IMG/VR virus record: IMGVR_UViG_3300045988_054096
Coordinates: 55,944-119,943 of that record
Length of the DNA: 64,000 nucleotides
Direction: 5' to 3' (one strand)
DNA from: a virus
The translations under genes were made by a program, and so were the position numbers. Positions 8,157 through 64,000 of this stretch are shown here, piece after piece (the stretch's first letter is position 1; each line of letters opens with the position of its first letter). The notes under the pieces were generated by a model, which saw nothing but the letters and a program-made list of their open reading frames with translations, did not search any database and had not been told where the DNA came from.

Positions 8157-9233
8157 TCAATCAAAACGATAACCTTTACTGTAATAATGAGCAGCTAATC
8201 TTAAGAGGAACTTAAATTCATTCCATCCTTTATTAAAATCTGCTTTAGATAGCTTATAAACTTTGGTGTAATAATCCGGAATAGTCGATACTACAAGGCA
8301 ATTAGATTGCACACTACAGTTCTTCATTCCATAGAACTTATCAGCTACCAAAGTCATCAACCAGCTGTACAAGGAAAGTTCCCTGTGATAATGGAATTTC
8401 TCAAAGTTGTTACCAAACTCTGAGAGTATCTTTCCGATAGTTTTAACATCATTGACAACTACAACATTAGACTCGGTATCAATGGTATAATTATCTAACT
8501 TAGCTTTAATTCTAAAGATAAATGGTTCATATTCGGGAACTTTGACTTGGACATCAAGCAAAATTGCTTGCTCGTTTTCAGAAATTGGATCTACCACAAT
8601 ACCTTTTGGATGTAGCAATTTTTGGATAGATTTATTTCTTTTCAGGGCTTCAACGCATTGTAATACCCTTTCCCTACTCTTAGGATCAAGATATATGGGA
8701 ACCTTGTCATCCACATACTTGCTTCCCCATTCATAGGCTCTTCGTTGAGCATAATAGTCCTCACACTTAATACGGAGAGTTTCCATTTTATCAGCATCCA
8801 TCTTTCCCTTGTAGTAGTCAATCTTATTAGATGCTGCAATTATTTCGTCAGCGGTTACAACACCATTAGCTTCAAACAAGGGATATAATTCGTCAGCCAT
8901 GAAACCAGCTTTAGCTGTAGGTCTATTTACATTATCTACTAAGATAAAGCTTTCAGGTTGTAATACTAATTGATGAACTGCTGATCCAAAGATCAGTGCA
9001 TCACTATACTTATTATGTTTACTCAATCCTTCAAAGAAGGCTTCTGGATCATTGTCTTGATATGGATTTAGCAAGGAGAGTCTAGAATTACTGATATATC
9101 CACTAAACTTTTCACTAAAGTATTCGGCATCATCAATCTTCTGCAACCTTAGTGTATCCATTAGTGGGATAATTTCAATACTATCTAAGTACTTCTCGTC
9201 TATAATCATCCACGAGGTCTTTAAAGTAATCAA
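8157..9233 (-). CDS. putative nuclease (PD-(D/E)XK-like), function uncertain
   Basis: 358 aa; GSAVH and D...E.K-like segments; weak. Confidence 0.25.
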   Translation of the reverse strand: MITLKTSWMIIDEKYLDSIEIIPLMDTLRLQKIDDAEYFSEKFSGYISNSRLSLLNPYQDNDPEAFFEGLSKHNKYSDALIFGSAVHQLVLQPESFILVDNVNRPTAKAGFMADELYPLFEANGVVTADEIIAASNKIDYYKGKMDADKMETLRIKCEDYYAQRRAYEWGSKYVDDKVPIYLDPKSRERVLQCVEALKRNKSIQKLLHPKGIVVDPISENEQAILLDVQVKVPEYEPFIFRIKAKLDNYTIDTESNVVVVNDVKTIGKILSEFGNNFEKFHYHRELSLYSWLMTLVADKFYGMKNCSVQSNCLVVSTIPDYYTKVYKLSKADFNKGWNEFKFLLRLAAHYYSKGYRFD

Positions 9234-9726
9234 ACATGGTATCTTTAAACAGAAAATAACTCTCTTCTATTTCCTCCTTATCAAGACTGAAAATTCGGCC
9301 AACTGGTCCCCACTTACGATTATGTTTACCATCTATAAGCAGACATGGTACACCATTAAGATTTAGGTCAATGAAATTGGATATACTATCATCTACAAAT
9401 ACATCAACCCTTCCTTTAATGCGAGGAGCTTTACTAGAAAGCTGGCAAGGAATTTGATATATTGGAGCTGGAGGTAATCCGTTCTCTACTAGAAACTGTC
9501 TTGACCATGTTTTTGGATGCACCCTCTTAGTGCAATACAGGGTAGGAACGAAATTAGGCCTATGGATGATTGGAAGATTCATCCAAAAGTCCTTATCGTT
9601 TATAAGTATTCTACTAACATTCTTGGTAATTTCACTATCTCTCTTAGGAGTTCCAAACCTCTTAAGGTAGGGACCAATGAAGTCACATATTGTGTCATCA
9701 ATGTCCAATCCAATCTTTAATCTCAT
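9181..9726 (-). CDS. 5'(3')-deoxyribonucleotidase (HAD superfamily, NT5C-like)
   Basis: 181 aa; N-terminal IGLDIDDTICDF = HAD motif I DxDxT as in NT5C family. Confidence 0.55.
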   Translation of the reverse strand: MRLKIGLDIDDTICDFIGPYLKRFGTPKRDSEITKNVSRILINDKDFWMNLPIIHRPNFVPTLYCTKRVHPKTWSRQFLVENGLPPAPIYQIPCQLSSKAPRIKGRVDVFVDDSISNFIDLNLNGVPCLLIDGKHNRKWGPVGRIFSLDKEEIEESYFLFKDTMFDYFKDLVDDYRREVLR

Positions 9727-10467: not shown

Positions 10468-11499
10468 TTAAGTCTTTCTTCTATCCCTTAGCCATAAAAC
10501 AAATTTTTTAATTAAGTTCAAAGTTTCTTTTCTTCCGTGATCCTTGTAAAAGTCAGAAATGTCTTTACTCCCGCACTCTTTTGGAATGCAGACATATACA
10601 AGTTCTGGATGTTCTCTTCTAATTTTAGCCATGTTATATAAGCCTGGTCTATCATTATCATAGAACACTACTATGTTTTCGAATCTACTCTTTAGTTCTT
10701 CAAGCACAGCATCCGAGATAAACAAGTTCTCACTATTAGGTGCACACGCAGTAATACCACATGAATATAAGCACATAACATCCTTTAGCGACTTGGTAAT
10801 CACTAATAACTTCCCACTTTTTGGAAGCTGATCGTATCCCTGAATCTTCTTACTCGGCCAATTAGTAATAAATCTAAAGGATGTTCTTTTAGGAAAATAA
10901 CATCTCCAAAGCTCAATCCCCTGATACTTCTTACCATAATAGCCAAAGATAGGGCAGTGTTGTTGTGATTTGGCAACCAACTGTCCATTCAAGAAGACGT
11001 GTTTACAGGAATAAACATTAAAGCGTTTAAGGGTTTCCAGAGTTATTCCATACTTTCCCCACCACTTCAGTTCTAAGTCAGTAAAATCTTGTACCTCTAC
11101 CTGTATCTTTGACATTTCCTTATCCTGCATTCTGACAGGGTGTTCATTAATCTTTCCAGAGTTTTTCTGAAGAGACTTATCTCGCACAATCCCCATGTCA
11201 TTGGCAATTATTCTAAGAGCCTCAAAATAATCACAATGAAACATCTCTTGGACTACCCCAAATATATTCAGATGTTGTCCAGTAGCGAAGTCCTTAAAGA
11301 TTAGAGTGTTAGATCCATTCCTATAGAAGCTACAAGTAGGTCTTCTATCCTTTCTTAGAGGAGATCTAAACAATCCTTTCTTTACAGGCACATGAAGATA
11401 ATACTCCATAAGTTGCTCCTCAGAAAACCTAGACAAGATCAACTCTTTTGTAATCTTAGGTTTAAACGAGAAATCCACATTCATATTCCTTATTATCAA
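10468..11499 (-). CDS. DNA primase (TOPRIM domain, DnaG-like)
   Basis: 343 aa; TOPRIM DxD motif VVFYDNDRPG, N-terminal Cys/His zinc-binding-like region. Confidence 0.5.
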   Translation of the reverse strand: MIIRNMNVDFSFKPKITKELILSRFSEEQLMEYYLHVPVKKGLFRSPLRKDRRPTCSFYRNGSNTLIFKDFATGQHLNIFGVVQEMFHCDYFEALRIIANDMGIVRDKSLQKNSGKINEHPVRMQDKEMSKIQVEVQDFTDLELKWWGKYGITLETLKRFNVYSCKHVFLNGQLVAKSQQHCPIFGYYGKKYQGIELWRCYFPKRTSFRFITNWPSKKIQGYDQLPKSGKLLVITKSLKDVMCLYSCGITACAPNSENLFISDAVLEELKSRFENIVVFYDNDRPGLYNMAKIRREHPELVYVCIPKECGSKDISDFYKDHGRKETLNLIKKFVLWLRDRRKT

Positions 11500-17875: not shown

Positions 17876-18184
17876 CTACATTATATACTTGTTCTTATCT
17901 TTCTCCTTAGGCTTAGATACAAATTTATCAAATTGTATACCACTGTAATTGTAGGGAATCATTTTCTCTCCATCAAACCACTTGTCTACACCAGCTCTGA
18001 TTTCAAAGAAGTTTAGGTATCCTACCTCATCAATGTCAATCATGCGATGGTTCCAGTTTGGGTATCTAGTACACATGACATACTTTGTATCCTTAAGTAT
18101 CTCTTCATCTAAACACTCAAATACGTAAGTAACATATCCTAGAGTGTCTACTTCCTTAGCGACTAATCGAGCTAATATGGTCAT
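17876..18184 (-). CDS. hypothetical protein
   Basis: 102 aa ORF. Confidence 0.25.
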   Translation of the reverse strand: MTILARLVAKEVDTLGYVTYVFECLDEEILKDTKYVMCTRYPNWNHRMIDIDEVGYLNFFEIRAGVDKWFDGEKMIPYNYSGIQFDKFVSKPKEKDKNKYIM

Positions 18185-23230: not shown

Positions 23231-23950
23231 CTTATACTTCATTTAGTTCTTTATTTAAAAGATTAATAACTTGTTCATCAGAGAGTCTATAATCAACTTC
23301 TATAAGTTTAATATTAGATCTCTTACATAAAGCTCTTAGCAGATTATCTCTAGTCTACTATTTATTGAAATCAGCTACTCCTCCTGAATGAAAGAACGGA
23401 ATATATTGATAATGCTGTACTCCATTGTATTCAATTATATACTTCTTGTTATTAGCAAAAACTACAAAGTCAGGTATAATAATATTTATTCCATTTATAG
23501 TTTTGGGAAGCACTATTCTGACCTAACTTTTATAGGAATACTCATTATCCTCTAGGTATTTCCTAATAAGAGATTCTCCAGAAGTTTCCTAACACCTAGG
23601 GCATCCACATCCCATTAAATGATTATGAGGAGTAACTAGGAAGATACCATGTTTAGGGCAAGTAACTTCAATATAAGAATGCATACCAGTGTATTTCCCA
23701 TATTTAAATCTACTTCCCCATCTAATGTAAGCTCTGCGCTCAAATTCTTCCTAGGAAATTCGGCTGTTTATTCCCCTCTGTTCATAAGAACACTTACGAC
23801 ATCCTCTACCAGACAAATGGTCGCTAGGAGTCTACTAAAATTCTCCATGAATAGGGCAGATTATAGTTACCTTAGTCTTATTCCCCTAATAATTAACTCT
23901 AGAATAATCATAGAAATCTCCATGAACTTTTCTTGCTTTCTCTATAAACT
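23231..23950 (-). CDS. homing-endonuclease-like protein (duplicated CPxHGxF(QQ)TPxxHLxGxGCPxC zinc ribbons + DUF559/PD-(D/E)XK-like C-terminal domain), TAG-recoded
   Basis: single minus-strand frame gives coherent ~235 aa protein ...KVHGDFYDYSRVNY*GNKTKVTIICPIHGEF**TPSDHLSGRGCRKC...CPKHGIFLVTPHNHLMGCGCPRC*ET...PDFVVFANNKKYIIEYNGVQHY...FNK**TRD...NEV with 8 in-frame TAG (incl. two TAG-TAG pairs) and TAA stop at 23231-23233; start codon not resolved. Confidence 0.5.
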
Positions 23951-23979
23951 ACCTGTTTGTTAATTTCTTTTCATCTTTA

Positions 23980-24498
23980 TTATTGATTTTTTGTATTAAG
24001 TAAATCTGCATATTTTACAGCCTCTTTTAGGCTCTTTCCTTCATAGAATCCTTGAAATATATTATTGATGTAAGATTTAGTATTTATATCCATTTTAATT
24101 TTAGGACTATACTTCTTCCACCAATCTATTTCATTTCTAGGATTTCCTCCATAAGTTCTGCAGGCGGCTAGATAATCACAAGCTAACTCTATAGCATATT
24201 TCCTTGGCATCTCAGCAGGAATGCCTCCATCATCAAGACTATGAATCCAATATTCATAGTGATGAGGATTTCTTCCTCTATGATGCAAGAATGTTTCAGA
24301 ATAGCCATTGATGTTTCTCTCATTAGCCAAGAAACTGATTTTATCATCCCAATACTTTATTGAGCGACTAAACTCAGTCCAGTTAAACTTAGACAAATCA
24401 TGCATTATTCCTTGCCAATATAAGCCAACCTGAAAACAATAATAGGCTACCCAAAACTTATGTGTTAATATTCTTTTCAATAGTTTTAATCCCACCAT
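23980..24498 (-). CDS. hypothetical protein
   Basis: 172 aa ORF. Confidence 0.3.
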   Translation of the reverse strand: MVGLKLLKRILTHKFWVAYYCFQVGLYWQGIMHDLSKFNWTEFSRSIKYWDDKISFLANERNINGYSETFLHHRGRNPHHYEYWIHSLDDGGIPAEMPRKYAIELACDYLAACRTYGGNPRNEIDWWKKYSPKIKMDINTKSYINNIFQGFYEGKSLKEAVKYADLLNTKNQ

Positions 24499-26706: not shown

Positions 26707-27228
26707 CTAAGCTCTGGATTCTTGCACAGAGTTTCCCTCAGAAGCTCCAACAGCTTTTGGTTGGATTTTATTCTTTCGCTTACGTTTTTGTCCATGATAA
26801 AATTCTCCTTTAAACGAATCCTCGTTGAATCCTAGTCTATCACGAGTGATGATATTCAGTTGTTCCTCTTTTTCCTTTCTCTTAGCCTCTATTTTATAGA
26901 GGATCCACTTATTTTCTTCCTCTTTTCGTTTTTCTTGTTCCCTTTCAAGTTTCCTTCGCATCTTTGCTTGTTCAGCAAAGTACCTATAACATTCTTTGGA
27001 ACCTCGCTCACAAGTATAGCTATCACACTTGTACACTGGAGATATATAGTCGTCAGGTTTTATGCCCTTAGAAGCTAGCTCAAACCTTAGTTTTATGGCT
27101 AGTGTTTTATTGATATAACCTCCAGAGTCCATAATATGTCTATATCGTCTGTAACCAATTCTTCCATAGATGTAGGCATTAACTCTCCAACTGGAATCTA
27201 TTATCTTATAAAGAGGGGTTGGGATCAT
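26707..27228 (-). CDS. hypothetical protein; reading frame stays open ~45 codons upstream of its ATG and may be the C-terminal part of a gene continuing from 27347..27616 through a frameshift
   Basis: 173 aa ORF; upstream in-frame sequence LKLLHGYVDEHEETPGERWPNEYYFDDDRVLQKRERKGRKNKL looks protein-like and abuts the stop of ORF 27347..27616. Confidence 0.3.
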   Translation of the reverse strand: MIPTPLYKIIDSSWRVNAYIYGRIGYRRYRHIMDSGGYINKTLAIKLRFELASKGIKPDDYISPVYKCDSYTCERGSKECYRYFAEQAKMRRKLEREQEKRKEEENKWILYKIEAKRKEKEEQLNIITRDRLGFNEDSFKGEFYHGQKRKRKNKIQPKAVGASEGNSVQESRA

Positions 27229-30883: not shown

Positions 30884-30952
30884 ACTTTTGGGATTCGAAC
30901 CTCTTAATTAGAAATTAAGTGTGCTACCATTACACCACATATCCTATAAAAT
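30884..30952 (-). tRNA. tRNA-like, nominal anticodon UCU, Gln-type D-arm, weak T-stem/acceptor (possible pseudo-tRNA)
   Basis: GGATATGTGGTGTAATGGTAGCACACTTAATTTCTAATTAAGAGGTTCGAATCCC; D-arm identical class to tRNA-Gln and the CUA suppressor; acceptor pairing not found. Confidence 0.3.
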
Positions 30953-38683: not shown

Positions 38684-38790
38684 CGGAGGTGGCAGGACTC
38701 GAACCCGCACGCCGTGTTACCGACTACTGGTGGTTTTCCTACTACTCATATGAGTAGCTCGACTATCTCTTTACCATATCATTACTGACT
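38684..38790 (-). other. tRNA-like 3' module (T-arm GCGGGTTCGAGTCCTGC + acceptor-like CACCTCCGCA) preceded by a 16-nt perfect hairpin; no matching 5' acceptor found
   Basis: seen on minus strand; could be a fourth permuted Y-RNA-like element or a tRNA remnant. Confidence 0.2.
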
Positions 38791-38882
38791 TAGGTAGCTG
38801 GTGTATAGTCTGTACACATTTAGGAATTAATTCCACTTAGCTCGGGATTATTATCATTTATAGGGCTGATACCTTCCCCGAA

Positions 38883-39327
38883 TTAGCCAGCTTCTACTTC
38901 AGAAGTTTCCTCCTGAGCACTCGTACCCCAATCTAATGTTACTATATATTTATCCCACTTGTCTGTTAACGTAAGAGTATTCTTAACATTAATAATACTT
39001 GTAGGAATTTCATACATAGTTCCTTCTACCGTCACTATAAATAGTACATCACAACTAGTATTGTCAAATGGTCTAGTTTTAGAAGTTCCAGAAGAACCTC
39101 CACAATTCTTCAATAGGACCTCATAGTTTCCAGATTCTTTTCTAAACTAAGTTGTTTTTACAGATACTCGTAGTAACTTTCCATCTTTATCCACTACTAA
39201 ATCGTATTTTTGGGTATCGTTAAGTGGCAGTAATACAGGAATACAATTAGCAGTATAATATGCTATTGCTCTTCCTAGTCCCACATTACCCTAATGTGAT
39301 TTGTAATTAGATGTCCAAGGATTCATA
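38883..39327 (-). CDS. hypothetical protein, TAG-recoded (2 in-frame TAG)
   Basis: ATG at 39325-39327; MNPWTSNYKSH*GNVGLGRAIAYYTANCIPVLLPLNDTQKYDLVVDKDGKLLRVSVKTT*FRKESGNYEVLLKNCGGSSG... continuous into track ORF 38883..39113; TAA stop. Confidence 0.5.
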
Positions 39328-39376
39328 ACACTAAATTTTTTTTTTAATTTCAAGACCACTCCCTTACCAATTAGGG

Positions 39377-39655
39377 TTACACCTCCAGCTTTAGTACTGA
39401 CTTATTCCACCAGTCTGTTAAGTCTTTAAAAGTAAATCCAAATTCATCTTCAAATTTTTCTTCTGGGACAGATTCAACATTTAGGTTTACTGCCCAGTGC
39501 CAACAAGCCCTCATTTCTTCTTCGTCTATAGGCTTTTCACACAACCATGTATCATCTAGAACCATGTCTAGAAAGACTTCATGTAATTGTTTAAATACAT
39601 TTATTTTCTCAATAGTTTCCATAAGCGGAGAGGCTGGGTTCCGACCCCAATGCAC
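39377..39655 (-). CDS. hypothetical protein
   Basis: 92 aa ORF. Confidence 0.3.
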   Translation of the reverse strand: MHWGRNPASPLMETIEKINVFKQLHEVFLDMVLDDTWLCEKPIDEEEMRACWHWAVNLNVESVPEEKFEDEFGFTFKDLTDWWNKSVLKLEV

Positions 39656-40646: not shown

Positions 40647-40665
40647 CATAACATACAAGTTAAAG

Positions 40666-41152
40666 TGGAGATGGAGGGAATCGAACCCTCGTCCAAACAA
40701 TCCTTAATAATAAGATAACGTGTGTCTCTATTTTATTTATCAGCTGTTGAGGTTCAGCTTATTTAGTTATATGACACTAACAAACTAGGGCTGACCAGAA
40801 TGTCAACGCTCCACCACCTACTTTTTAACGCTAAAGCAGGAAAACGAGTGTTTGTGGTGAGTCAACCACGCAGGCACACATCCCTTCTGTTTAAAGACAA
40901 TAATAGGAGATTCAGCTCTACTAACCTGTGGCTTTCGAGTTAAGCACAGTGGCTTATATCCTTCTGCTGTACACCTCTTCCGTTTCTAGGTCTCTCCCTG
41001 TAACCCGACTCAACACATCAACAGCTGAGCCAGCTGCTTAGGCAGCCATTCTTACTTCATTGTAGTTTGCATTTATTGTTTTCCTTCGTTTAAAGAGATC
41101 GCGCTCTACACGTCTTATTACCTCGTAATCGTTGTCAATACCAAGCATCCCC
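40666..41152 (-). ncRNA. ssrA: tmRNA (ssrA), ~487 nt, tag peptide ANYNEVRMAA
   Basis: 5' GGGGATGCTTGGTATTGACAACG pairs with 3' CATCTCC-A; 3' end TTTGGACGAGGGTTCGATTCCCTCCATCTCCA closely matches tmRNA consensus GGACG.GGGTTC.A.TCCC.CCA.CTCCA; internal frame GCA AAC TAC AAT GAA GTA AGA ATG GCT GCC TAA (41070 to 41038) followed by hairpin GCAGCTGGCTCAGCTG. Confidence 0.6.
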
Positions 41153-43626: not shown

Positions 43627-43718
43627 AATTAAGTGAGGAAGAAAAGATTCGAACTTTCAAAACAATCATACCTAGAATTTGATCTGCTTTACCATTTTGC
43701 ATACTTCCTCATTAAGAG

Positions 43719-43791
43719 CGGAGGGTAGGGGACTCGAACCCCTACTCCCAAGATTAGTTATCCTGTGCTTTAACCATTAAGCTAACCCTCC
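43719..43791 (-). tRNA. tRNA with atypical anticodon loop UAACUAA (nominal anticodon ACU with A33; loop contains CUA); identity undetermined
   Basis: otherwise perfect 73-nt cloverleaf GGAGGGTTAGCTTAATGGTTAAAGCACAGGA TAACTAA TCTTGGGAGTAGGGGTTCGAGTCCCCTACCCTCC-G. Confidence 0.45.
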
Positions 43792-43862: not shown

Positions 43863-44001
43863 GCTCTTTATTTATGCCTTGCGTGTTAAACCACTTCACC
43901 AATGCCCCATGTTAGTAAAATATAAATAGAGGGGCATAGGGGATTCGAACCCCCGATAGCAAGGTTTAATAATTATTCATTATCAGTAAATATCCACTGG
44001 C
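43863..44001 (-). ncRNA. Y-RNA-like RNA with permuted tRNA-like domain (third copy)
   Basis: T-arm GGGGGTTCGAATCCCCT + 3' acceptor ATGCCCC, 22-nt linker, then 5' acceptor GGGGCAT + D-arm TGGTGAAGTGGTTTAACAC; flanking CCTTGC/GCAAGG terminal stem. Confidence 0.35.
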
Positions 44002-44113: not shown

Positions 44114-44905
44114 TTATTCTCCGTAGTGTAAGAAGTTAATCATGCCTTCAACATCCAAGTTTGGATCCTCAGATTCCACATCATTAACTTCTTTCAGTGC
44201 TTCAATAACAGCAGCCAAAAGCTGACTTCTACGACGAAGTAACTCAGCACGCTGTCTTTGAGTCCACGCTCCTGTAAACTTCTGAAGAGTATAGTCTCCT
44301 GTTTCCACAGTTCTCTTCTTGATAGTTGTCTTAGCATTGTAGTTTGCAGGCAACTTAGCAGGATCGAGATTCGGATCTTTCAGGATGACTTCCTCAGACT
44401 CAGTAGTACGAGTTACACCTGTCTGCATAGGAGTTTGGAAGATTTCTCTACCAGCATACTCACCATCAGTGCAAGGTTCCCACACTTCTGCATCAGAACG
44501 AACAGGAATGTTGTTGTACATTTCTTCCCACTCTTTCTTAGTGAGAACAGTCTTCAATCTCATAAGGTCAAGAGCAGTTAGGAAACCGAAAGAGACATTG
44601 CCTACTTTCAGTTCTACTTTCTTAGCACCCTTAGAGTTGGTAGATTCTATAGAGAAGAGATTCTTCAGGTAAGGAACAGCATTTTCCTCAAACCATTGTA
44701 ACTTCTCATCTACAGTTGTTGCTACCTTAGTAGTACCCATGTAACGGGCATCTTCTTGATATCCTTCACGAGGTTTGAACGTTTTCTTGATTCCTTCAAA
44801 CATTCCTTGTTTGTTCTTGAAGAATGCGAAGTAATCACCAACCATACGATTGAATTGTGCTGCGCCATGTTCTACCTTGGCCAGCAAAGTGTTCATCTTT
44901 AACAT
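44114..44905 (-). CDS. hypothetical protein
   Basis: 263 aa ORF immediately downstream of Ro60-like gene. Confidence 0.3.
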   Translation of the reverse strand: MLKMNTLLAKVEHGAAQFNRMVGDYFAFFKNKQGMFEGIKKTFKPREGYQEDARYMGTTKVATTVDEKLQWFEENAVPYLKNLFSIESTNSKGAKKVELKVGNVSFGFLTALDLMRLKTVLTKKEWEEMYNNIPVRSDAEVWEPCTDGEYAGREIFQTPMQTGVTRTTESEEVILKDPNLDPAKLPANYNAKTTIKKRTVETGDYTLQKFTGAWTQRQRAELLRRRSQLLAAVIEALKEVNDVESEDPNLDVEGMINFLHYGE

Positions 44906-44907
44906 AC

Positions 44908-46650
44908 TTATTTCTTTTTACTTGTTTTACGTTTCGGTTTATTTACTACGACTTGCAATCTGTTCAACAAGTCCTGATCCATTGCAACCATGAAGAGTTC
45001 TTCTGCATTCTTTGGAGTACGTTTCATAGTACCAGTTCCCACGATGAATGCTACGGCTGATGGATCATAGCCAGACATATAGAAGAAGTTTGGAGCATCT
45101 GCAAAGTCTTCAAACTTAACTGCGTTTCCACTACCATAATAGTAATTAGGAATATCCCACATAATTAATTTGAAGTTCTTCACATACTCTTCGCTGAATC
45201 CAGCTTCCTTTAAGCGTCTGATAGCAGTTTGGAAGTTCGTACTGTCATTCCCACTTCCATATCTAGCAGGATTCAACTCCCCATCAGACACAAGAAGCAA
45301 TCCAGTTGGAAAGTCTTCATCCTTAACTCCTCTCTGTTTAAGATTGATAAACAAATCTATAACAGATTGGAAGTTAGTTCCACCATAGGCTTCACATCTA
45401 TCGTTGATATACTTATCAACTGGTGTGTCACCTTTCCACTGATGTAACTTACATTTGTCTGCAAACTCTGCAAATGAGTTGGTAAACGGACCAGTCAAGA
45501 ACTCAGAGAAATACAACGCCATAGATTTGCCTATATCATAAGCTGATACATTACATCCTCTAGCCTTAGAAGTCATAGAAGAGGAAGTATCTCTTACAAC
45601 AAGGAGTCTAGAATTAGTGTTAACTCCTTCCTTACCAGTCTTTACAAGCTGTGCAAACTGTGCATTGATTGTGTTCTCCTTATAGTCCTCAATGTGGTAA
45701 CAATTATAGCCACTACCAAGAGGAGTGAACAATTCAAATACAAAGCCTGTATACTTCGCAACTGGTTTAGACTGTATCCACTTAGAATACTTCTCAGTAA
45801 GATTGTGATTCTTCAGGAACTCAGAACCAACGAGAATAGCCAATGCTCTACCAGCAATATGATCGAAGTTAATCTTATCATACAACTGTTGAGAAATCAG
45901 CTGTTGCCATTGGTGAGCTTTTCCCTCAGATTTCATCTTACGATAAGCCTTATAAGCAGACTCTTTCTCCAAATCTGGAGAGAACTTACGAGCTATCCAT
46001 CTACCAATTAAGGTATCAGCCTGAGACTCCACAGTCTTACAGTTCTTGTTAGTACGGATAGCAGGCATATACTTTCTTACCAAGTGAGTAGTCTCTGGAT
46101 TTGTGAATCCAGCAGCTATTACAAGGAAGAAGAAATTCCAATCAAGCTTTCTGCCTTCCCACCCATGATACTGTAAGTCAAGGGATAACATCTGGAAGAC
46201 ATCTTTCCAAGAACCAGCGGCAACGAAGTATGCAAAGTTTGCTTTGAACGTCTTCGGTTGGTTGATAGCCAACCACAACATTCTCATAATGCCTTCGTTC
46301 TTCAAACCCTGTCCTCTCTGTACTTCCAACTCTTCGATAGAACCATCATCCTTTACTACCTTTGACTTACGAGTAATCAATCTGATATACACTGCAAGTT
46401 TCAGACACAACTTCGGATCAAGGCTCCAGAGCAACTCCATGTCCTTTGCTACTTCCTTATAAGAGCGAGGCTCTTTAAAGTATGATATGGCAGCGAAGTT
46501 ATCTACAAAGTCATTGCCAGAAGTGTTGTACTTCTTAGCTCCATTTCCAGATTGGACTACAGAAGTTTCCTTCATCCCTTCTTTCAGAAATTGATTTTCA
46601 GTTCCCTTGTTGGTATCCATAAGGGAACTAAGTTTCTTTTCAAATACCAT
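44908..46650 (-). CDS. rsr: Ro60/Rsr ortholog (TROVE-like helical N-terminal region + C-terminal von Willebrand A domain)
   Basis: 580 aa; vWA MIDAS DTSSSM, GGTNF, LLLVSDGE, and C-terminal MSGYDPSAVAFIVG closely parallels Ro60 DVSASM...GGTDCS...MCGFDTGALDVI; no in-frame TAG. Confidence 0.5.
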   Translation of the reverse strand: MVFEKKLSSLMDTNKGTENQFLKEGMKETSVVQSGNGAKKYNTSGNDFVDNFAAISYFKEPRSYKEVAKDMELLWSLDPKLCLKLAVYIRLITRKSKVVKDDGSIEELEVQRGQGLKNEGIMRMLWLAINQPKTFKANFAYFVAAGSWKDVFQMLSLDLQYHGWEGRKLDWNFFFLVIAAGFTNPETTHLVRKYMPAIRTNKNCKTVESQADTLIGRWIARKFSPDLEKESAYKAYRKMKSEGKAHQWQQLISQQLYDKINFDHIAGRALAILVGSEFLKNHNLTEKYSKWIQSKPVAKYTGFVFELFTPLGSGYNCYHIEDYKENTINAQFAQLVKTGKEGVNTNSRLLVVRDTSSSMTSKARGCNVSAYDIGKSMALYFSEFLTGPFTNSFAEFADKCKLHQWKGDTPVDKYINDRCEAYGGTNFQSVIDLFINLKQRGVKDEDFPTGLLLVSDGELNPARYGSGNDSTNFQTAIRRLKEAGFSEEYVKNFKLIMWDIPNYYYGSGNAVKFEDFADAPNFFYMSGYDPSAVAFIVGTGTMKRTPKNAEELFMVAMDQDLLNRLQVVVNKPKRKTSKKK

Positions 46651-49890: not shown

Positions 49891-50620
49891 TCATTTTAAA
49901 ATATTATTTAATAATGTTATTATTTGATCTTGAGAATAAGTATAAGGAATTTCAACTAGATTTAGTTTCTATTCCTCACAGTATCTTCTAAGATCCTCAT
50001 CTCTTACTTTCTACTTTAGGAAGTCTCTTTCAGCCTTTTCCTAATCCCCTGTAAACGGAATAGGTATATAATGCTATCTACCATTATATTCTATTACAAT
50101 CTACTTGCTTGGAATATAGAAGTCAACAATTATTTTCTTTCTGGATCTAAAGTTTCCTTCTAATTCATACTAAGACAGGTAGTTAATTTGTCCTCCATCA
50201 AGATAGCTTGATATAAGCCTCTCTCCGTGACTTTCTTTACACTTCGGACATCCATGTCCATATATGTGTATGCCTGGTGTCTGAAGGAATGAACCGTGTA
50301 TAGGACATATTATTTCTACCTTTTGATGTTGTCCGCAGTACTTTAGAGTAATCATACTTGTCCTTATGAACCTACTTGGCTTTCCTTATGAAATCTTCCT
50401 AAGTATCAGACTTAGCCTTACGCATCTTCTCCCTTCCACATTTTGGACATCCTGACCCACTCAGGAAAGAATTTGCGCTCTTTTCAAATTGTCCATGTAT
50501 AGGACAAATTACAGTTATTTTATCTCTACTACTAACATAAACGGACTAAGAGTAATCGTAGTCCTAGGTAGGATAAATTTCCTTAGCTTTCTAGATAAAC
50601 TCTTCTGTAGTTAGCTTTCT
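49891..50620 (-). CDS. second homing-endonuclease-like gene (paralog of 23231..23950), TAG-recoded and split by a frameshift near 50345
   Basis: MRKLTTEEFI*KAKEIYPT*DYDYS*SVYVSSRDKITVICPIHGQFEKS...GCPKCGREK...DT*EDFIRKAK*VHKDKYDYSKV / frame change / KYCGQHQKVEIICPIHGSFLQTPGIHIYGHGCPKC (track ORF 50170..50355) then read-through ...NYLS*YELEGNFRSRKKIIVDFYIPSK*IVIEYNGR*HYIPIP... to TGA at 49891-49893. Confidence 0.4.
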
Positions 50621-50631
50621 CATTTCTAATG

Positions 50632-51078
50632 TTACTTAGCTCCATCACACAACGAGAATAAATAGTCAAATTTGTTAACATTTTGAATAAATGTCTCACA
50701 TTCTGACTTCAATCCAGCATATAATGGATTTTCAGGAATTTGTTTGTAGAAGCTAAGAGTTCCTGCTTTTACTTCATCAACGAATTGTTGAGCATTCTAA
50801 GCATTACCTGGATCTCCTTTAACATCACTCGGTCCTAAATGTACACTTAGTACTCCCATGATGCCTTCTGCAACAGTATCCTAATAATCTGAGATAACTT
50901 CTAAGAACTCATCCAAATACACATGGACGTTCTTCTTAGGAGCTGCCCAGTGTAAGTTCTTACATTTTGTTTTCCATCCTTCCAACTTACAGATAAAGTC
51001 GAGGAAAGGTTTAAGGCCTGATACCTATCCTCCATTCTGAAATACTGGAGTTCTTGGAACTAGTGGTACTATACTCAT
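50632..51078 (-). CDS. Dps/ferritin-like protein, TAG-recoded (3 in-frame TAG)
   Basis: MSIVPLVPRTPVFQNGG*VSGLKPFLDFICKLEGWKTKCKNLHWAAPKKNVHVYLDEFLEVISDY*DTVAEGIMGVLSVHLGPSDVKGDPGNA*NAQQFVDEVKAGTLSFYKQI...CDGAK, TAA stop; Dps-like LHW...YLDEF...D.VAE pattern. Confidence 0.55.
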
Positions 51079-51133
51079 TCTAAAAATGCATTTTTAATTG
51101 TTAATAAATAGAATCTATTTGCTACATCCAAAG

Positions 51134-51205
51134 TTGGAGCAAGAGGACTCGAACCTCTACTGTAAGATTCAAAATCTTATGTGCTAACCATTACACCATG
51201 CTCCA
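51134..51205 (-). tRNA. tRNA-Gln (anticodon UUG)
   Basis: TGGAGCATGGTGTAATGGTTAGCACATAAGA TTTTGAA TCTTACAGTAGAGGTTCGAGTCCTCTTGCTCCA. Confidence 0.65.
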
Positions 51206-52179: not shown

Positions 52180-52779
52180 CTAACCAAAAAGAGTATTCAA
52201 TTGCTCCTTTAACGCATTAAGTCTTTGGATAGTAATTGTTAACTTTTCATGCTTTGCTTTTAAATTACTGTACTGTATTTTCTGCAAAGTTACTGTATTT
52301 TTCAACGACTTATTCTCAGAGAGAAGCTTTTTATTTTCATCCCATATACTATCTGCTAGATTAAATTCTTCAGATCTTTCCTTAATCGTAGCTTCTAGTT
52401 TAGCTATTTTTCCTACTGCCTCTATAAGTTTTTTCTCAGCTTTCTGAGAGGCATTCATAAATGCAGTCATGGAAGAAGAAACCTCTGGATACACTAGAAG
52501 TAAACTTCTTAGATATGGAATAATTGTATCTTCTCCGAGAGTTGCAGATACTCCAATACTAGTTTTTATCACATAAAAGCCAACAGATGTTTTAACAATA
52601 TCAATATCCTTTAGCTTTACTTCTGCATTAAAGTGATCAGCGAATCTTACTATAATTTCAAATTCCTTTCCATAAGATACCTTGTAGTACCTAGAGTTAT
52701 ACAATTTCGATTGATGCTCCAGTTTACCAACACGAGCAAGGTACCTTTTAATTGATTCATCTCTTTTGCTCTTTAACAT
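52180..52779 (-). CDS. hypothetical coiled-coil protein
   Basis: 199 aa ORF. Confidence 0.3.
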   Translation of the reverse strand: MLKSKRDESIKRYLARVGKLEHQSKLYNSRYYKVSYGKEFEIIVRFADHFNAEVKLKDIDIVKTSVGFYVIKTSIGVSATLGEDTIIPYLRSLLLVYPEVSSSMTAFMNASQKAEKKLIEAVGKIAKLEATIKERSEEFNLADSIWDENKKLLSENKSLKNTVTLQKIQYSNLKAKHEKLTITIQRLNALKEQLNTLFG

Positions 52780-55865: not shown

Positions 55866-56251
55866 AACTCGGCAGTGTTCAAAAGGTTGTACAGTGTGTT
55901 CTTCAAACTCTCAACGATTACCTCGTCGTTAAGCTGCCGACCTTGGAACTTGTCCAAAATGGCATTACGAATGCCCTTTCTCTTTGCCATTTCCTTGTCA
56001 TATTCAGCCTTTCTCTTTGCCATTTCCTTGTCATATTCAGCCTTTCGCGCATCATACAGAACTTTCTCTTTCTTCCTGTCCTCCTTCTGAAGATTGATGT
56101 ATGTTTTCTCTGGCTCTACAGGAGTGCCTGGAAGAACAACATCACAAAGTCCATAGTTCTTATTGGCTTGAACTTGTACTTTGTAGGGAGAAAAGCCATT
56201 CTTGTTGTTTGTAACTTTAAGATTCAAAACGATAGATTTTGCTCCTATCAT
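55862..56251 (-). CDS. hypothetical protein with internal duplicated peptide KEMAKRKAEYDKEMAKRK
   Basis: 129 aa ORF spanning the 33-bp tandem repeat. Confidence 0.3.
   Translation of the reverse strand: MIGAKSIVLNLKVTNNKNGFSPYKVQVQANKNYGLCDVVLPGTPVEPEKTYINLQKEDRKKEKVLYDARKAEYDKEMAKRKAEYDKEMAKRKGIRNAILDKFQGRQLNDEVIVESLKNTLYNLLNTAEL
55978..56043. repeat. perfect 33-bp tandem duplication (TTCTCTTTGCCATTTCCTTGTCATATTCAGCCT x2)
   Basis: two identical adjacent copies 55978-56010 and 56011-56043 inside a coding region. Confidence 0.8.
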
Positions 56252-61666: not shown

Positions 61667-62002
61667 CTAACGAATTTCGTTTTTATTAGTAAAGTATTGG
61701 TAATCCAATTCACTTTCCAAACCCATAGGGGAGGGGGATTTTAATATCTTATCATTTAAATATTCTACTACATGGAACTCACTTTGATTATATTGTCTAT
61801 GTCCGAACTCGTGCATAATAACATTCTCTATGTGAGAATCGTTTGATTGTTCTCTATTCATATTAATGTTAAGAGCTATGGTTTCTCTCTTAGATATTCC
61901 TTTCTTACTAGTTACATCATCAAACAACTTAAATACATTATCATCTTTAATAGATGTAGTAGCTCCAAGTATTCTGTCTAATTCTATTGGATCATATTCC
62001 AA
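61667..62002 (-). CDS. HEXXH zinc-metallopeptidase-like protein (ImmA/IrrE-like?); apparent TTG start, possibly fused by frameshift with upstream ORF 62003..62158
   Basis: 111 aa with HEFGH motif; upstream 50-codon ORF ends TGA overlapping. Confidence 0.35.
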   Translation of the reverse strand: MEYDPIELDRILGATTSIKDDNVFKLFDDVTSKKGISKRETIALNINMNREQSNDSHIENVIMHEFGHRQYNQSEFHVVEYLNDKILKSPSPMGLESELDYQYFTNKNEIR

Positions 62003-62157
62003 TCCTTCTTCTTCTAAATCTATTTACCCAGAAATCACTATAATAGAATCGTTCTACACTTTCTAGAACTTCATCTAGTCTGCCTCCTAAGTAGCTAGAT
62101 ACCTCCTTATAAGTATCAATACATTGTGGTCTTGAAATAAGTTTATTTAGTTCCATA

Positions 62158-62194
62158 ACAAAAAAAAATGCTAGCCAATAATCTGACTAGCATT
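62158..62194 (-). terminator. rho-independent terminator
   Basis: hairpin ATGCTAGTCAGATTATTGGCTAGCAT followed by T9 on minus strand (plus-strand A-run 62159-62168); downstream of the suppressor tRNA. Confidence 0.5.
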
Positions 62195-62400
62195 TGCTCT
62201 CTAATTTTAATACGCATCAGTACTTAACCGATAGTTCATTTATCTTATCTAACCAATCTAGTACAAATTGCTCATTTTGCAGTTTAGCTTTTTCAATTTG
62301 ACTCATCAATTCCTCTAACATTCCAATAGACAGTTGGCACATATTCCAAAGTCTATTCTTTTCATTTGCATAAATCATAATGTCATAAAAGTATAAGTTA

Positions 62401-62470
62401 GTCCTCCCCCAAGGATTCGAACCCTGACCAAGTGGGTTAGAGCCACCTGTGCTACCATTACACCAGAGGA
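62401..62470 (-). tRNA. amber suppressor tRNA (anticodon CUA), Gln-like body
   Basis: TCCTCTGGTGTAATGGTAGCACAGGTGG CTCTAAC CCACTTGGTCAGGGTTCGAATCCTTGGGGGAGGA-C; perfect anticodon stem, loop C-U-CUA-A-C; D-arm GGTGTAATGGTAGCAC shared with tRNA-Gln(UUG) at 51134-51205. Confidence 0.65.
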
Positions 62471-62506
62471 GAATAAGGTTGCAGGAATTTCACCTGCAAA
62501 GTATTA

Positions 62507-62947
62507 TTAGAATCTGTTATAGACATCAACCAATTCATTGATTTTATCTTTAAGATGATCACAAATTATTTGTGAAGATTGGCCAATCATTTCACTAACT
62601 TCAGCAGCTTCTTCTTCAGTAAAAGTATCCTGATTTAGAAGTTCATCAAATCTTTGTATATCAAAGTACTGATCCATTTCTTCAGCAGCTTCAACGAATA
62701 AGCAATCATCAAGCTCTTCAATACGTTCTTTATATTCTTTGATAATCTCCTTTATGCAGGAATCATCAAATCCTTCAACAGCATCTTCATTGTCAGAAGT
62801 TATACTAATGTTAATAACTCCATCTTTCTTGTTTAGAGCAATTTTAGTGCCATTCACTTCTAAACTCTCTTCAGCCCCATCTGGAATTGCTACATTAAAT
62901 ATATTGATGAGGTCAAATAATGCTTTAACTTCTTGTAGATTTTTCAT
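62507..62947 (-). CDS. hypothetical acidic protein
   Basis: 146 aa ORF. Confidence 0.3.
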   Translation of the reverse strand: MKNLQEVKALFDLINIFNVAIPDGAEESLEVNGTKIALNKKDGVINISITSDNEDAVEGFDDSCIKEIIKEYKERIEELDDCLFVEAAEEMDQYFDIQRFDELLNQDTFTEEEAAEVSEMIGQSSQIICDHLKDKINELVDVYNRF

Positions 62948-63109
62948 GTTGTTTTATTTTACACTGCAAATATATACAGTATTTCAGTAAGTAAAAAGTT
63001 AATTATTGTTATTTCTTATTATCTTTTGTTTCACTACTGCAAGTATAGTAACTAAATCTAGAATATAAAAGTGAATTTATCTTAAAAGATATTAATCTTA
63101 CTCTCGTTC

Positions 63110-63340: not shown

Positions 63341-64000
63341 AAGTTTATCTACAAATCTATAGTATACCTCCATTCTTTAAAGTGAATCCCTATGCTGTCC
63401 ATTCAGGAACAGTCTACATATTAAAATCTATCATCTTTGGTCTTCTTAGCCAGTCTAGACCAACATTACCAGGAGCTACATCGTCTACAACTACTTGTCC
63501 ATTTGTGTAAGCTCTATACTATACATTTGGGTCGTTAACTCTTCTAAATCCAGACCTCTCCATAGCTCTATCTAATTTACTAGCGTACTTTGGAAATGTC
63601 TATTCAGTTAAGATTCTTAGTTTTCTCTAAACATAAGTAGGTAATTTGGTTCCTCTGTCTTTTACATATCCTATATACTTACTCGGAACTGTGTTAGGTA
63701 TCTAGTTCCTAGCAGCCATTTCTTCTACTGGAATTGAAGTCATTTTACCAACAGTAGTTGGAGTATTATCAACAACTACAGCTTCTGCACCTCCGCCTAT
63801 AGGATTCTTAGAATACTATTTAAGAGTTCCTAAAGCTCCATTCTTAGAAGGAGCTCTGAATACTCCTTTAGTAAGTCTATTATAGAGCTATGCAGACTTT
63901 CTTCCAGCTGTACCGACTGCTCCTGCTATTCCCGCACCTGCCACATTACTAGCATAATCAAAATTAGATTGTATAGCAGCCTAACCTTCTGGAGTTGTAT
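63341..64000 (-). CDS. Gly/Ala-rich structural-like protein (tail fibre/virion protein candidate), heavily TAG-recoded, 5' part beyond window end
   Basis: one minus-strand frame reads ...NVAGAGIAGAVGTAGRKSA*LYNRLTKGVFRAPSKNGALGTLK*YSKNPIGGGAEAVVVDNTPTTVGKMTSIPVEEMAARN*IPNTVPSKYIGYVKDRGTKLPTYV*RKL...GGIL*ICR then TAA; 10 in-frame TAG, no TAA/TGA. Confidence 0.5.

Follow-up and report, generated by a model that had tools for sequence, protein, structure and literature searches.

A tRNA gene with anticodon CUA at 62.4 kb

The stretch of DNA analyzed here, 64,000 nucleotides of the IMG/VR virus record IMGVR_UViG_3300045988_054096 (positions 55,944 to 119,943; hereafter the window), carries near its end a minus-strand transfer RNA (tRNA) gene with anticodon CUA, i.e., a candidate suppressor of the amber codon UAG. 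The genes of the window are all on the minus strand and its G+C content is 37%. Positions 1 to 37.7 kb are tiled by standard-code open reading frames (ORFs), including those for a ribonucleotide reductase, a DnaB-like helicase, a Toprim primase, a superfamily-2 helicase, a ketoacyl synthase, and an SPFH protein. Positions 38 to 62 kb contain about 29 tRNA genes, a transfer-messenger RNA (tmRNA), and a group I intron according to ARAGORN and Rfam combined; by itself, ARAGORN lists 27 tRNA or tmRNA genes across the window, each of them minus-strand.

ARAGORN called the CUA tRNA at 62401-62472 (72 nt), and the Rfam tRNA model (RF00005, gathering score 29) matched 62402-62472 (71 nt) over its full length (model positions 1 to 71) with 53.3 bits (E = 1.2e-8). 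Both agree on the register of the anticodon loop and, together with the predicted fold and the family covariation described below, confirm that the minus-strand segment 62402-62472 is a real tRNA gene with anticodon CUA. An earlier reading of the window, made from the sequence only, had recognized this tRNA but placed it at 62401-62470, two acceptor-stem bases short of the true 5′ end at 62472.

The RNA consists of the 5′ acceptor strand UCUCCUC, the linker UG, a D-stem GUGU/GCAC enclosing AAUGGUA, a single A, the anticodon stem GGUGG/CCACU, the variable loop UGGU (4 nt), the T-arm CAGGG-UUCGAAU-CCUUG, the 3′ acceptor strand GGGGAGG, and the discriminator A73 (at 62402). The first pair is a U1-G72 wobble (U1 at 62472), and no CCA is encoded, the gene reading ...GGA and then CUAAC past the discriminator. 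The D-arm is GGTGTAATGGTAGCAC (in the feature list, GGUGUAAUGGUAGCAC). The anticodon loop, C32 U33 C34 U35 A36 A37 C38, is as previously described; the anticodon stem does have 5 bp but is not perfect as had been stated, one of the pairs being a G27-U43 wobble. With its 7-bp acceptor stem, G18-G19, U33, purine 37, and short variable loop, the molecule has the features of an elongator type I cloverleaf. That it would read UAG is indirectly supported by the full-length, conserved ORFs with 2 to 17 in-frame TAG codons described below.

Conservation and covariation of the tRNA family

A scan of IMG/VR for the D-arm plus CUCUAA pattern of this tRNA identified 16 contigs, compared to just one contig in 185,579 bacterial and archaeal species genomes, so that this suppressor type is essentially phage-specific. 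In two of the contigs (L006 and L013), the tRNA is the same apart from one or two differences, while the others carry diverged members of one family. Among nine alignable members, 98.9% of the cloverleaf alignment cells were paired and 14 of 21 pairs showed compensatory changes on both sides; none of 500 shuffles reached these values, and with slid partners only about 50% of the cells paired. The D-arm, the CUCUAA of the loop, and the G10-C25 pair are invariant across the family, and the first pair is always weak or mismatched (U-G, U-A, A-C, or C-U). This pattern argues that the suppressor tRNA is under selection.

CUA tRNAs of the same family but 88 to 90 nt long were found in five contigs (L003, 103-192; L012, 681-768; L009, 5232-5319; L002, 2321-2409; L001, 1387-1476). 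Their variable region holds an extra arm with a 3-bp stem and a 7-nt loop centered on a Gln anticodon (CUCUGAA, CUUUGAA, or UGCUGAG). Speculatively, this hairpin might offer glutaminyl-tRNA synthetase (GlnRS) the G36 that the CUA anticodon lacks.

Distribution of in-frame TAG codons

TAG usage falls into two classes of genes. The 57 standard-code ORFs stop at TAA (n = 37), TGA (n = 15), or TAG (n = 5), and the replication and nucleotide-metabolism genes (ribonucleotide reductase, DnaB, primase, helicase) have no in-frame TAG. TAG as a sense codon is needed by only a minority of the ORFs, to which the recoding noted in the sequence-only reading, although real, is confined.

The ORF nearest the tRNA within this minority, at 63345-64000 (minus strand), is the 3′ part of a TAG-rich gene cut by the window end, with 10 in-frame TAG codons in the portion present here. 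This gene closes the TAG-rich lysis module located ahead of the tRNA. The part of this module that lies beyond the window was read from a related 170,664-bp human-gut metagenome contig (ENA ERZ916200, locus L156), where it is on the same strand and directly upstream of the ORF and tRNA that follow in the window. There the module comprises an endolysin with NlpC/P60 and Phage_lysozyme2 domains (9 in-frame TAGs), a 209-aa protein (6 TAGs), two small membrane-like proteins (the first with no TAG, the second with 2), and the complete TAG-rich gene (8647-9603), whose 318-aa product has 17 TAG codons compared to 2 CAA and 0 CAG. In total, the lysis module has 34 TAGs in four genes.

The remaining TAG-bearing ORFs of the window are as follows. 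A homing-endonuclease-like gene at 23232-24014 (minus strand; DUF723 repeats and a C-terminal nuclease domain) has 9 in-frame TAGs amid TAG-free replication genes and appears to be a client of the suppressor. A second homing-endonuclease paralog at 49891-50635 (minus strand) has 11 TAGs and is split over two frames, with one TAG falling on the invariant Q of an EYNGxQH motif. Three in-frame TAGs occur in an ORF at 50632-51093, and two in a PD-(D/E)XK endonuclease ORF at 38883-39401 (minus strand) that overlaps the group I intron (38742-38945, minus strand; Rfam, 61.1 bits).

The five otherwise TAG-free genes that end in TAG (stop codons at 9181-9183, 17876-17878, 26707-26709, 52180-52182, and 61667-61669, all minus strand) have an in-frame TAA or TGA after 2 to 42 further codons. 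An active suppressor would thus give these genes short C-terminal extensions.

Residue specified by TAG

The closest homologue of the 23232-24014 endonuclease, protein P0001 (88% identical), has Q at 9 of 9 TAG sites. We rejected this result as circular because the P0001 contig does not yield this protein under table 11 and 12 of its 15 Q residues are themselves TAG codons. The public protein collection holds code-15 translations in which TAG is written as Q (entries P0001 and P0121 to P0138), so that tallies of TAG against Q can be circular unless the underlying DNA is checked, a caution for annotation in general.

Four endonuclease homologues were verified to translate in the standard code. 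All four have Q at the EYNGxQH-motif TAG of the second endonuclease, a position that in the first endonuclease of this same genome is a Q encoded by CAR, and three of the four have Q at residue 60 of the first endonuclease, also a TAG. For the endolysin, codons were tallied over 73 distinct lysozyme-domain loci, 57 of which had no TAG in the aligned region. At residue 276, a TAG in this phage, 29 of 56 TAG-free distant homologues have CAG or CAA, the next most frequent residue being Thr (n = 9). Two TAG codons of this phage, at endolysin residues 248 and 276, are both CAA in an orthologue with 67% identity (L169). Among close relatives, TAG is kept as TAG at 34 of 37 and 13 of 15 sites in two comparisons, and where it has changed, CAG/CAA is the commonest replacement (5 of 10), the rest being GAR, AAG, and Arg codons. 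At one TAG site, the NlpC/P60-domain homologues in PDB have K or Q, which does not decide the matter, and comparison of the TAG-rich ORF with its counterparts in L017 and L018 was barely informative, these sequences being nearly identical or frameshifted.

The conserved columns at TAG are all Gln, and by these alignments TAG is almost certainly best read as glutamine, in line with the residue that the sequence-only reading had proposed.

Affinities of the tRNA body

The suppressor had also been described as having a Gln-type body, derived from a Gln tRNA and paired with a tRNA-Gln(UUG) paralog. The tRNA-Gln(UUG) of the window (51134-51205, minus strand; ARAGORN and Rfam), with U1-A72, G2-C71, G3-C70, and A73, indeed has a D-arm of the same type (GGTGTAATGGTTAGCAC, i.e., the suppressor D-arm with one extra T), and the two tRNAs share this arm and the universal T-loop. 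Overall, however, they are only 61% identical, level with unrelated tRNAs of the window (Ala, 62%; Arg, 61%; Trp, 59%), so the term paralog overstates the relationship. Neither descent from a Gln tRNA nor paralogy to this particular tRNA-Gln(UUG) is established.

In a sample of IMG/VR matches to the 17-nt D-arm, taken irrespective of anticodon, the 89 tRNAs with intact anticodon stems included 52 Gln(UUG), 11 Trp, 8 Pro, 5 Met, and 5 His. When the suppressor was compared with 895 distinct phage tRNAs, a tRNA-Trp(CCA) came closest among those without a CUA anticodon (79% identity), a tRNA-Gln being next (75%). Isoacceptor profile hidden Markov models with the anticodon masked (cross-validated accuracy, 75%) scored the suppressor at 45.2 bits for Gln versus 42.7 for Trp, and with the D-arm also masked (accuracy, 67%) at 21.6 bits for Trp versus 19.9 for Gln. 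Similarity of the anticodon-masked body alone therefore cannot assign suppressors of this kind to Gln, a point to be borne in mind in annotation. What remains of the Gln-type designation is the D-arm, carried mostly by phage tRNA-Gln, and the acceptor end. U1 is present in 81% of phage tRNA-Gln(UUG) but in 9% (3/34) of tRNA-Trp; A73 is the commonest discriminator of phage tRNA-Gln(UUG) (40%, 29/73) and occurs in 6% of tRNA-Trp, 85% of which (29/34) have G73. On this count the acceptor end favors Gln over Trp. The anticodon loop agrees at C32, A37, and C38 with the loops CUUUGAC and CUCUGAC found in phage tRNA-Gln.

GlnRS identity involves U35, G36, the 10-25 pair, pairs 1-72 and 3-70, and the discriminator (PMC9976931). 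By these rules the suppressor has U35 and the G10-C25 pair, while its first pair, U1-G72, is weak but not the U1-A72 of the rule.

The window also contains a truncated pseudo-tRNA at 30890-30944 (minus strand) with the identical D-arm 16-mer and an anticodon loop UUUCUAA (UCU) but without the 5′ half of the T-stem and the 3′ acceptor strand. The sequence-only reading had listed it as a UCU tRNA-like element at 30884-30952 with the same D-arm; the D-arm stands, the element being the shorter, truncated one.

Gene neighborhood and transcription signals

Upstream of the tRNA is ORF146 (62507-62947, minus strand), a 146-aa ORF with no TAG and no family match that ends 34 nt before the tRNA and is syntenic in L017, L018, and L156. 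A Bacteroidota-type −7 box motif, TATATTTG, is located at 62967-62974, 20 nt upstream of the ORF146 start codon; a sigma-70 promoter scan found 13 candidates, with 13.0 expected in shuffled sequence. Between the ORF146 stop codon and the tRNA, a terminator-like scan and alignment identified a 7-bp hairpin (TTGCAGG...CCTGCAA; 62479-62499, minus strand), probably a weak terminator or processing signal. The relative L006 has a hairpin of unrelated sequence at the same place 5′ of the tRNA (about 476-505), the structure but not the sequence being kept.

Downstream, a small ORF of about 53 aa (62217-62378, minus strand), read from the sequence and matched by a 53-aa gene called at the same place in L157, separates the tRNA from an intrinsic-terminator-like hairpin (62156-62195, minus strand; stem 62195-62166, 13 pairs, then a T-run). 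The hairpin and T-run of the terminator previously reported to follow the tRNA are thus real, but they lie about 205 nt downstream, beyond the small ORF, rather than directly after the tRNA. Transcription of the unit containing the tRNA likely stops at this hairpin. The ORFs on either side of the tRNA received no functional assignment from PHROGs.

In L018, flanks identical to those of the suppressor enclose a different tRNA(CUA) (10476-10548; 73% identity, acceptor strand UGCCUUA, loop CUCUAAA). Since some canonical CUA tRNA is always present at this site in L017, L018, L156, and L006, the 62.4-kb site behaves like an exchangeable cassette in which a canonical suppressor is always found.

A second tRNA(CUA) and the surrounding RNA cluster

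The window encodes a second, noncanonical tRNA(CUA) at 43634-43710 (minus strand), identified by ARAGORN, Rfam (38.5 bits), its orthologues, and its folds. Its anticodon loop is UUCUAGG with G37-G38, its D-stem has 3 bp, and its anticodon stem contains an A-A mismatch; it matches no isoacceptor profile (best score, 7.9 bits). Syntenic orthologues, with an invariant UUCUAGG loop and covarying stems, occur in at least 15 related contigs. They are 92 to 95 nt long and have five arms (e.g., L139, 7292-7383; L145, 7357-7451; L147, 7368-7461; and others), with an extra hairpin of covarying stem (CAGUC/GACUG or CAAUC/GAUUG) between the D-arm and the CUA arm, because of which ARAGORN mislabels them. 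The window copy is without this hairpin.

Next to it, at 43719-43791 (minus strand), is a tRNA whose relatives at the same site have a near-constant body but each a different anticodon loop (L138, 7116-7192; L139, 7149-7224; L145, 7214-7289; L147, 7224-7299; L151, 3678-3751; L154, 7117-7192). The loops are CUCUUAA, CUUUCAU, CGUUUAA, CGGUUAA, GCAUUAA, and CUUUUAU, and UAACUAA in the window. In this group, a base other than U is frequent at position 33, and ARAGORN labels its members as Lys, Glu, Asn, or "Ser(ACU)." Instead of decoding, this tRNA with a hypervariable loop on a conserved scaffold may serve as a decoy or as a target-escape element.

Just upstream of these unusual tRNAs are genes for a DUF2828/DUF7788 protein (TROVE/Ro60-like; 44908-46650, minus strand), of a type annotated as "RNA-binding protein" in other phages, and a DUF7873 protein (44114-44905, minus strand). 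Between them and the tRNAs lies a permuted tRNA-like piece (43897-43954; weak cyano_tmRNA match, 16 bits), in which a T-arm and 3′ acceptor strand are followed by a 5′ acceptor strand and D-arm. The whole may be a Ro/Y-RNA-like module. The phage tmRNA gene is at 40663-41152 (minus strand; Rfam, 97.2 bits), and ARAGORN predicts for it an unusual tag peptide, VQQKDISHCA.

Relatives and host of the phage

ORF146 is found residue for residue on L156, the DNA of which matches the end of the window, although the two are not collinear throughout. The window is part of a human-gut phage of roughly 170 kb, and relatives in IMG/VR are 100 to 190 kb long. Megablast of 9 kb against 50,697 phage records (INPHARED) gave no match, and tblastn with the DUF2828 protein retrieved distant phages only, the best protein match being 42% identical. 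No synthetase or release factor was found among the window ORFs of at least 300 aa.

Shine-Dalgarno motifs precede 5 of 57 ORFs compared to 23% of random positions, and the Bacteroidota −7 box TAnnTTTG is enriched (93 occurrences versus 65.5 ± 8 expected). Both observations fit, weakly, the Bacteroides/Prevotella host suggested in the sequence-only reading, which they do not prove.

Discussion

The interpretation that we consider very probable is that the 62402-62472 locus encodes a phage amber-suppressor tRNA(CUA) that is charged with glutamine by the host and reads UAG in the TAG-bearing genes. It builds on the observed tRNA and its anticodon, their conservation and covariation, the two-class distribution of TAG, and glutamine as the best-fitting residue at TAG. 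As to which enzyme charges the tRNA, how far the transcription unit extends, when it is expressed, and which host is involved, we infer the following course of events. A minus-strand unit comprising ORF146, the 62479-62499 hairpin, the tRNA, the small ORF, and the terminator, directly downstream of the TAG-rich lysis module, would owe its transcription either to a Bacteroidota-type promoter near 62967-62974 or to transcripts reading through from the lysis module. Host tRNA-processing enzymes would then trim the suppressor and, because no CCA is encoded, add it. A host enzyme, most likely GlnRS through its recognition of U35, G10-C25, and the weak 1-72 pair, would charge the suppressor with Gln. 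Reading of UAG as Gln would yield the full-length NlpC/P60-lysozyme endolysin and its neighbors, the homing endonucleases, and presumably structural genes outside the window, while the TAG-free replication and nucleotide-metabolism genes could be translated before the suppressor accumulates. Such a course is the one put forward for recoded gut phages (bioRxiv 10.1101/2021.08.26.457843).

Several points weigh against this interpretation. The glutamine assignment for TAG comes from alignment, and many TAG sites align to E, K, T, N, or A in standard-code homologues, which confines the assignment to a few conserved columns. By both the neighbor search and the profile models, the body of the suppressor is as near to phage tRNA-Trp as to tRNA-Gln. 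In place of the E. coli GlnRS determinants G2-C71, G3-C70, and G73, the suppressor has C2-G71, U3-A70, and A73, while the window's own tRNA-Gln(UUG) retains the first two. The presence of a second tRNA(CUA) means that 62402-62472 need not be the only or main suppressor. Finally, a host without GlnRS would need a nondiscriminating glutamyl-tRNA synthetase plus an amidotransferase, which prefers U1-A72 (PMC9976931).

The tie between Gln and Trp bodies raises the alternative, which we regard as unlikely, that the suppressor arose from a tRNA-Trp-type gene by a single change at position 35 (CCA to CUA) and inserts Trp, or else Gln as does the E. coli tRNA-Trp amber suppressor. The T-arm and 3′ anticodon-stem strand of the nearest tRNA-Trp(CCA) are almost identical to those of the suppressor, and the D-arm-masked profile score and the Trp tRNAs with this exact D-arm (11 of 89) point the same way. 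The acceptor end does not, A73 and U1 both being rare in phage tRNA-Trp, nor does the anticodon loop, with its C32 and A37-C38 as in phage tRNA-Gln; moreover, the window's own tRNA-Trp has a different body. As for the residue inserted, the conserved TAG columns align to Q and not to W. The major determinants for tryptophanyl-tRNA synthetase in E. coli are the CCA anticodon and G73, and charging with Trp is unlikely because both would be missing. Under the GlnRS identity rules of PMC9976931, either ancestry would lead to Gln charging. We think it rather improbable that the working suppressor is instead the tRNA(CUA) at 43634-43710, with 62402-62472 as a redundant, exchangeable extra copy. The fixed syntenic site of the former in at least 15 contigs, with its invariant loop and covarying stems, would fit such a role, as would the replacement of the tRNA between identical flanks in L018 and the two or three suppressor genes per genome known elsewhere (PMC10607447). 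However, the 43634-43710 tRNA is noncanonical, scores lower with Rfam (38.5 versus 53.3 bits), matches no isoacceptor profile, and has relatives with an extra hairpin, and the constant presence of a canonical CUA tRNA at the 62.4-kb site in L017, L018, L156, and L006 argues that one is needed there. Little credence can be given to a reading that combines both genes, according to which the clade would maintain a division of labor between two tRNA(CUA) lineages of unrelated structure. One, canonical and exchangeable, would be the Gln/Trp-like suppressor located where the lysis module ends, and the other a fixed, noncanonical CUA tRNA-like RNA beside the Ro60/TROVE-like gene. UAG decoding would then be staged or have two meanings, differing in amino acid or in timing, or the second RNA would be a tRNA mimic bound by the Ro-like protein.

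Two further explanations were rejected. ARAGORN labels the suppressor tRNA-Pyl, as it does any tRNA with a CUA anticodon. In pyrrolysine tRNAs, the D-loop is small and without G18-G19, the anticodon stem has 6 bp, the variable loop has 3 nt, and a single base lies between the acceptor and D stems. In the suppressor, by contrast, the D-loop is ordinary and includes G18-G19, the T-loop is the canonical UUCGAAU, the anticodon stem has 5 bp, the variable loop is 4 nt long, and the acceptor and D stems are separated by two bases. The scan of window ORFs of at least 300 aa revealed no PylS-like protein, and the conserved TAG columns align with Gln rather than Lys-like positions. We regard a pyrrolysine tRNA as extremely improbable. 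The existence in the window of degraded tRNA-like pieces, such as that at 30890-30944, and of a TAG-bearing endonuclease split over two frames could suggest that the suppressor is a decaying remnant and that in-frame TAGs mark pseudogenes. This is very improbable, contradicted as it is by a complete cloverleaf with strong compensatory variation in relatives and by TAG-bearing ORFs that are full-length, conserved, and domain-bearing (NlpC/P60 plus Phage_lysozyme2), with TAG kept as TAG in nearly all comparisons between relatives (34/37 and 13/15).

Taking the tRNA as a glutamine-inserting suppressor, a bacterial parallel is E. coli supE, a tRNA-Gln with a CUG-to-CUA change that inserts Gln at UAG. 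The two have in common CUA, U1, a weak first pair, G10-C25, and U35, and a single base separates the CU-CUA-A of the suppressor loop from the CUCUGA(A/C) loops that phage tRNA-Gln(CUG) carries. Unlike supE, the suppressor is without G2-C71, G3-C70, and G73, is phage-borne, and serves genes in which TAG is a regular sense codon, not rare nonsense mutations. With E. coli su7, a Gln-charged tRNA-Trp with a CCA-to-CUA change, it shares an affinity to tRNA-Trp, its body being equally near to phage tRNA-Trp and tRNA-Gln, but it has A73 and U1 where tRNA-Trp typically has G73 and A1 or G1. su7 sets a precedent for a CUA anticodon with U35 redirecting a non-Gln body to GlnRS (PMC9976931).

TAG-to-Gln recoding, a phage-encoded tRNA(CUA), replication genes in the standard code alongside recoded genes for lysis, and dependence on host GlnRS have all been published (bioRxiv 10.1101/2021.08.26.457843; PMC9523058; PMC10607447). 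As in the phage studied here, the recoded code-15 gut phages (crAss-like, Lak, the "gemstone" clades, and phAss-1/Phassvirus) are large gut phages with a tRNA-Sup(CUA), TAG aligns with Gln, the replication genes are in the standard code and the lysis genes recoded, no phage synthetase is evident, and more than one CUA tRNA may be present per genome (PMC10607447). The present lineage differs in being without a near match in INPHARED and in having the tRNA directly downstream of the lysis module, whereas the published Jade code-change operon is upstream of the lysis cassette (bioRxiv 10.1101/2021.08.26.457843). The arrangement itself is therefore already documented in human-gut phages, while the lineage is absent from the reference phage collection that we searched.

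For this uncultivated gut-phage clade, of roughly 170 to 190 kb, the data mean that genetic code 15 is used for part of the genome. Genes should accordingly be called with TAG = Gln, as otherwise the endolysin, its lysis neighbors, and the homing endonucleases fragment. Lying at the 3′ end of a TAG-rich lysis module, the tRNA also offers a concrete unit on which the published proposal of lysis gating by recoding can be tested.

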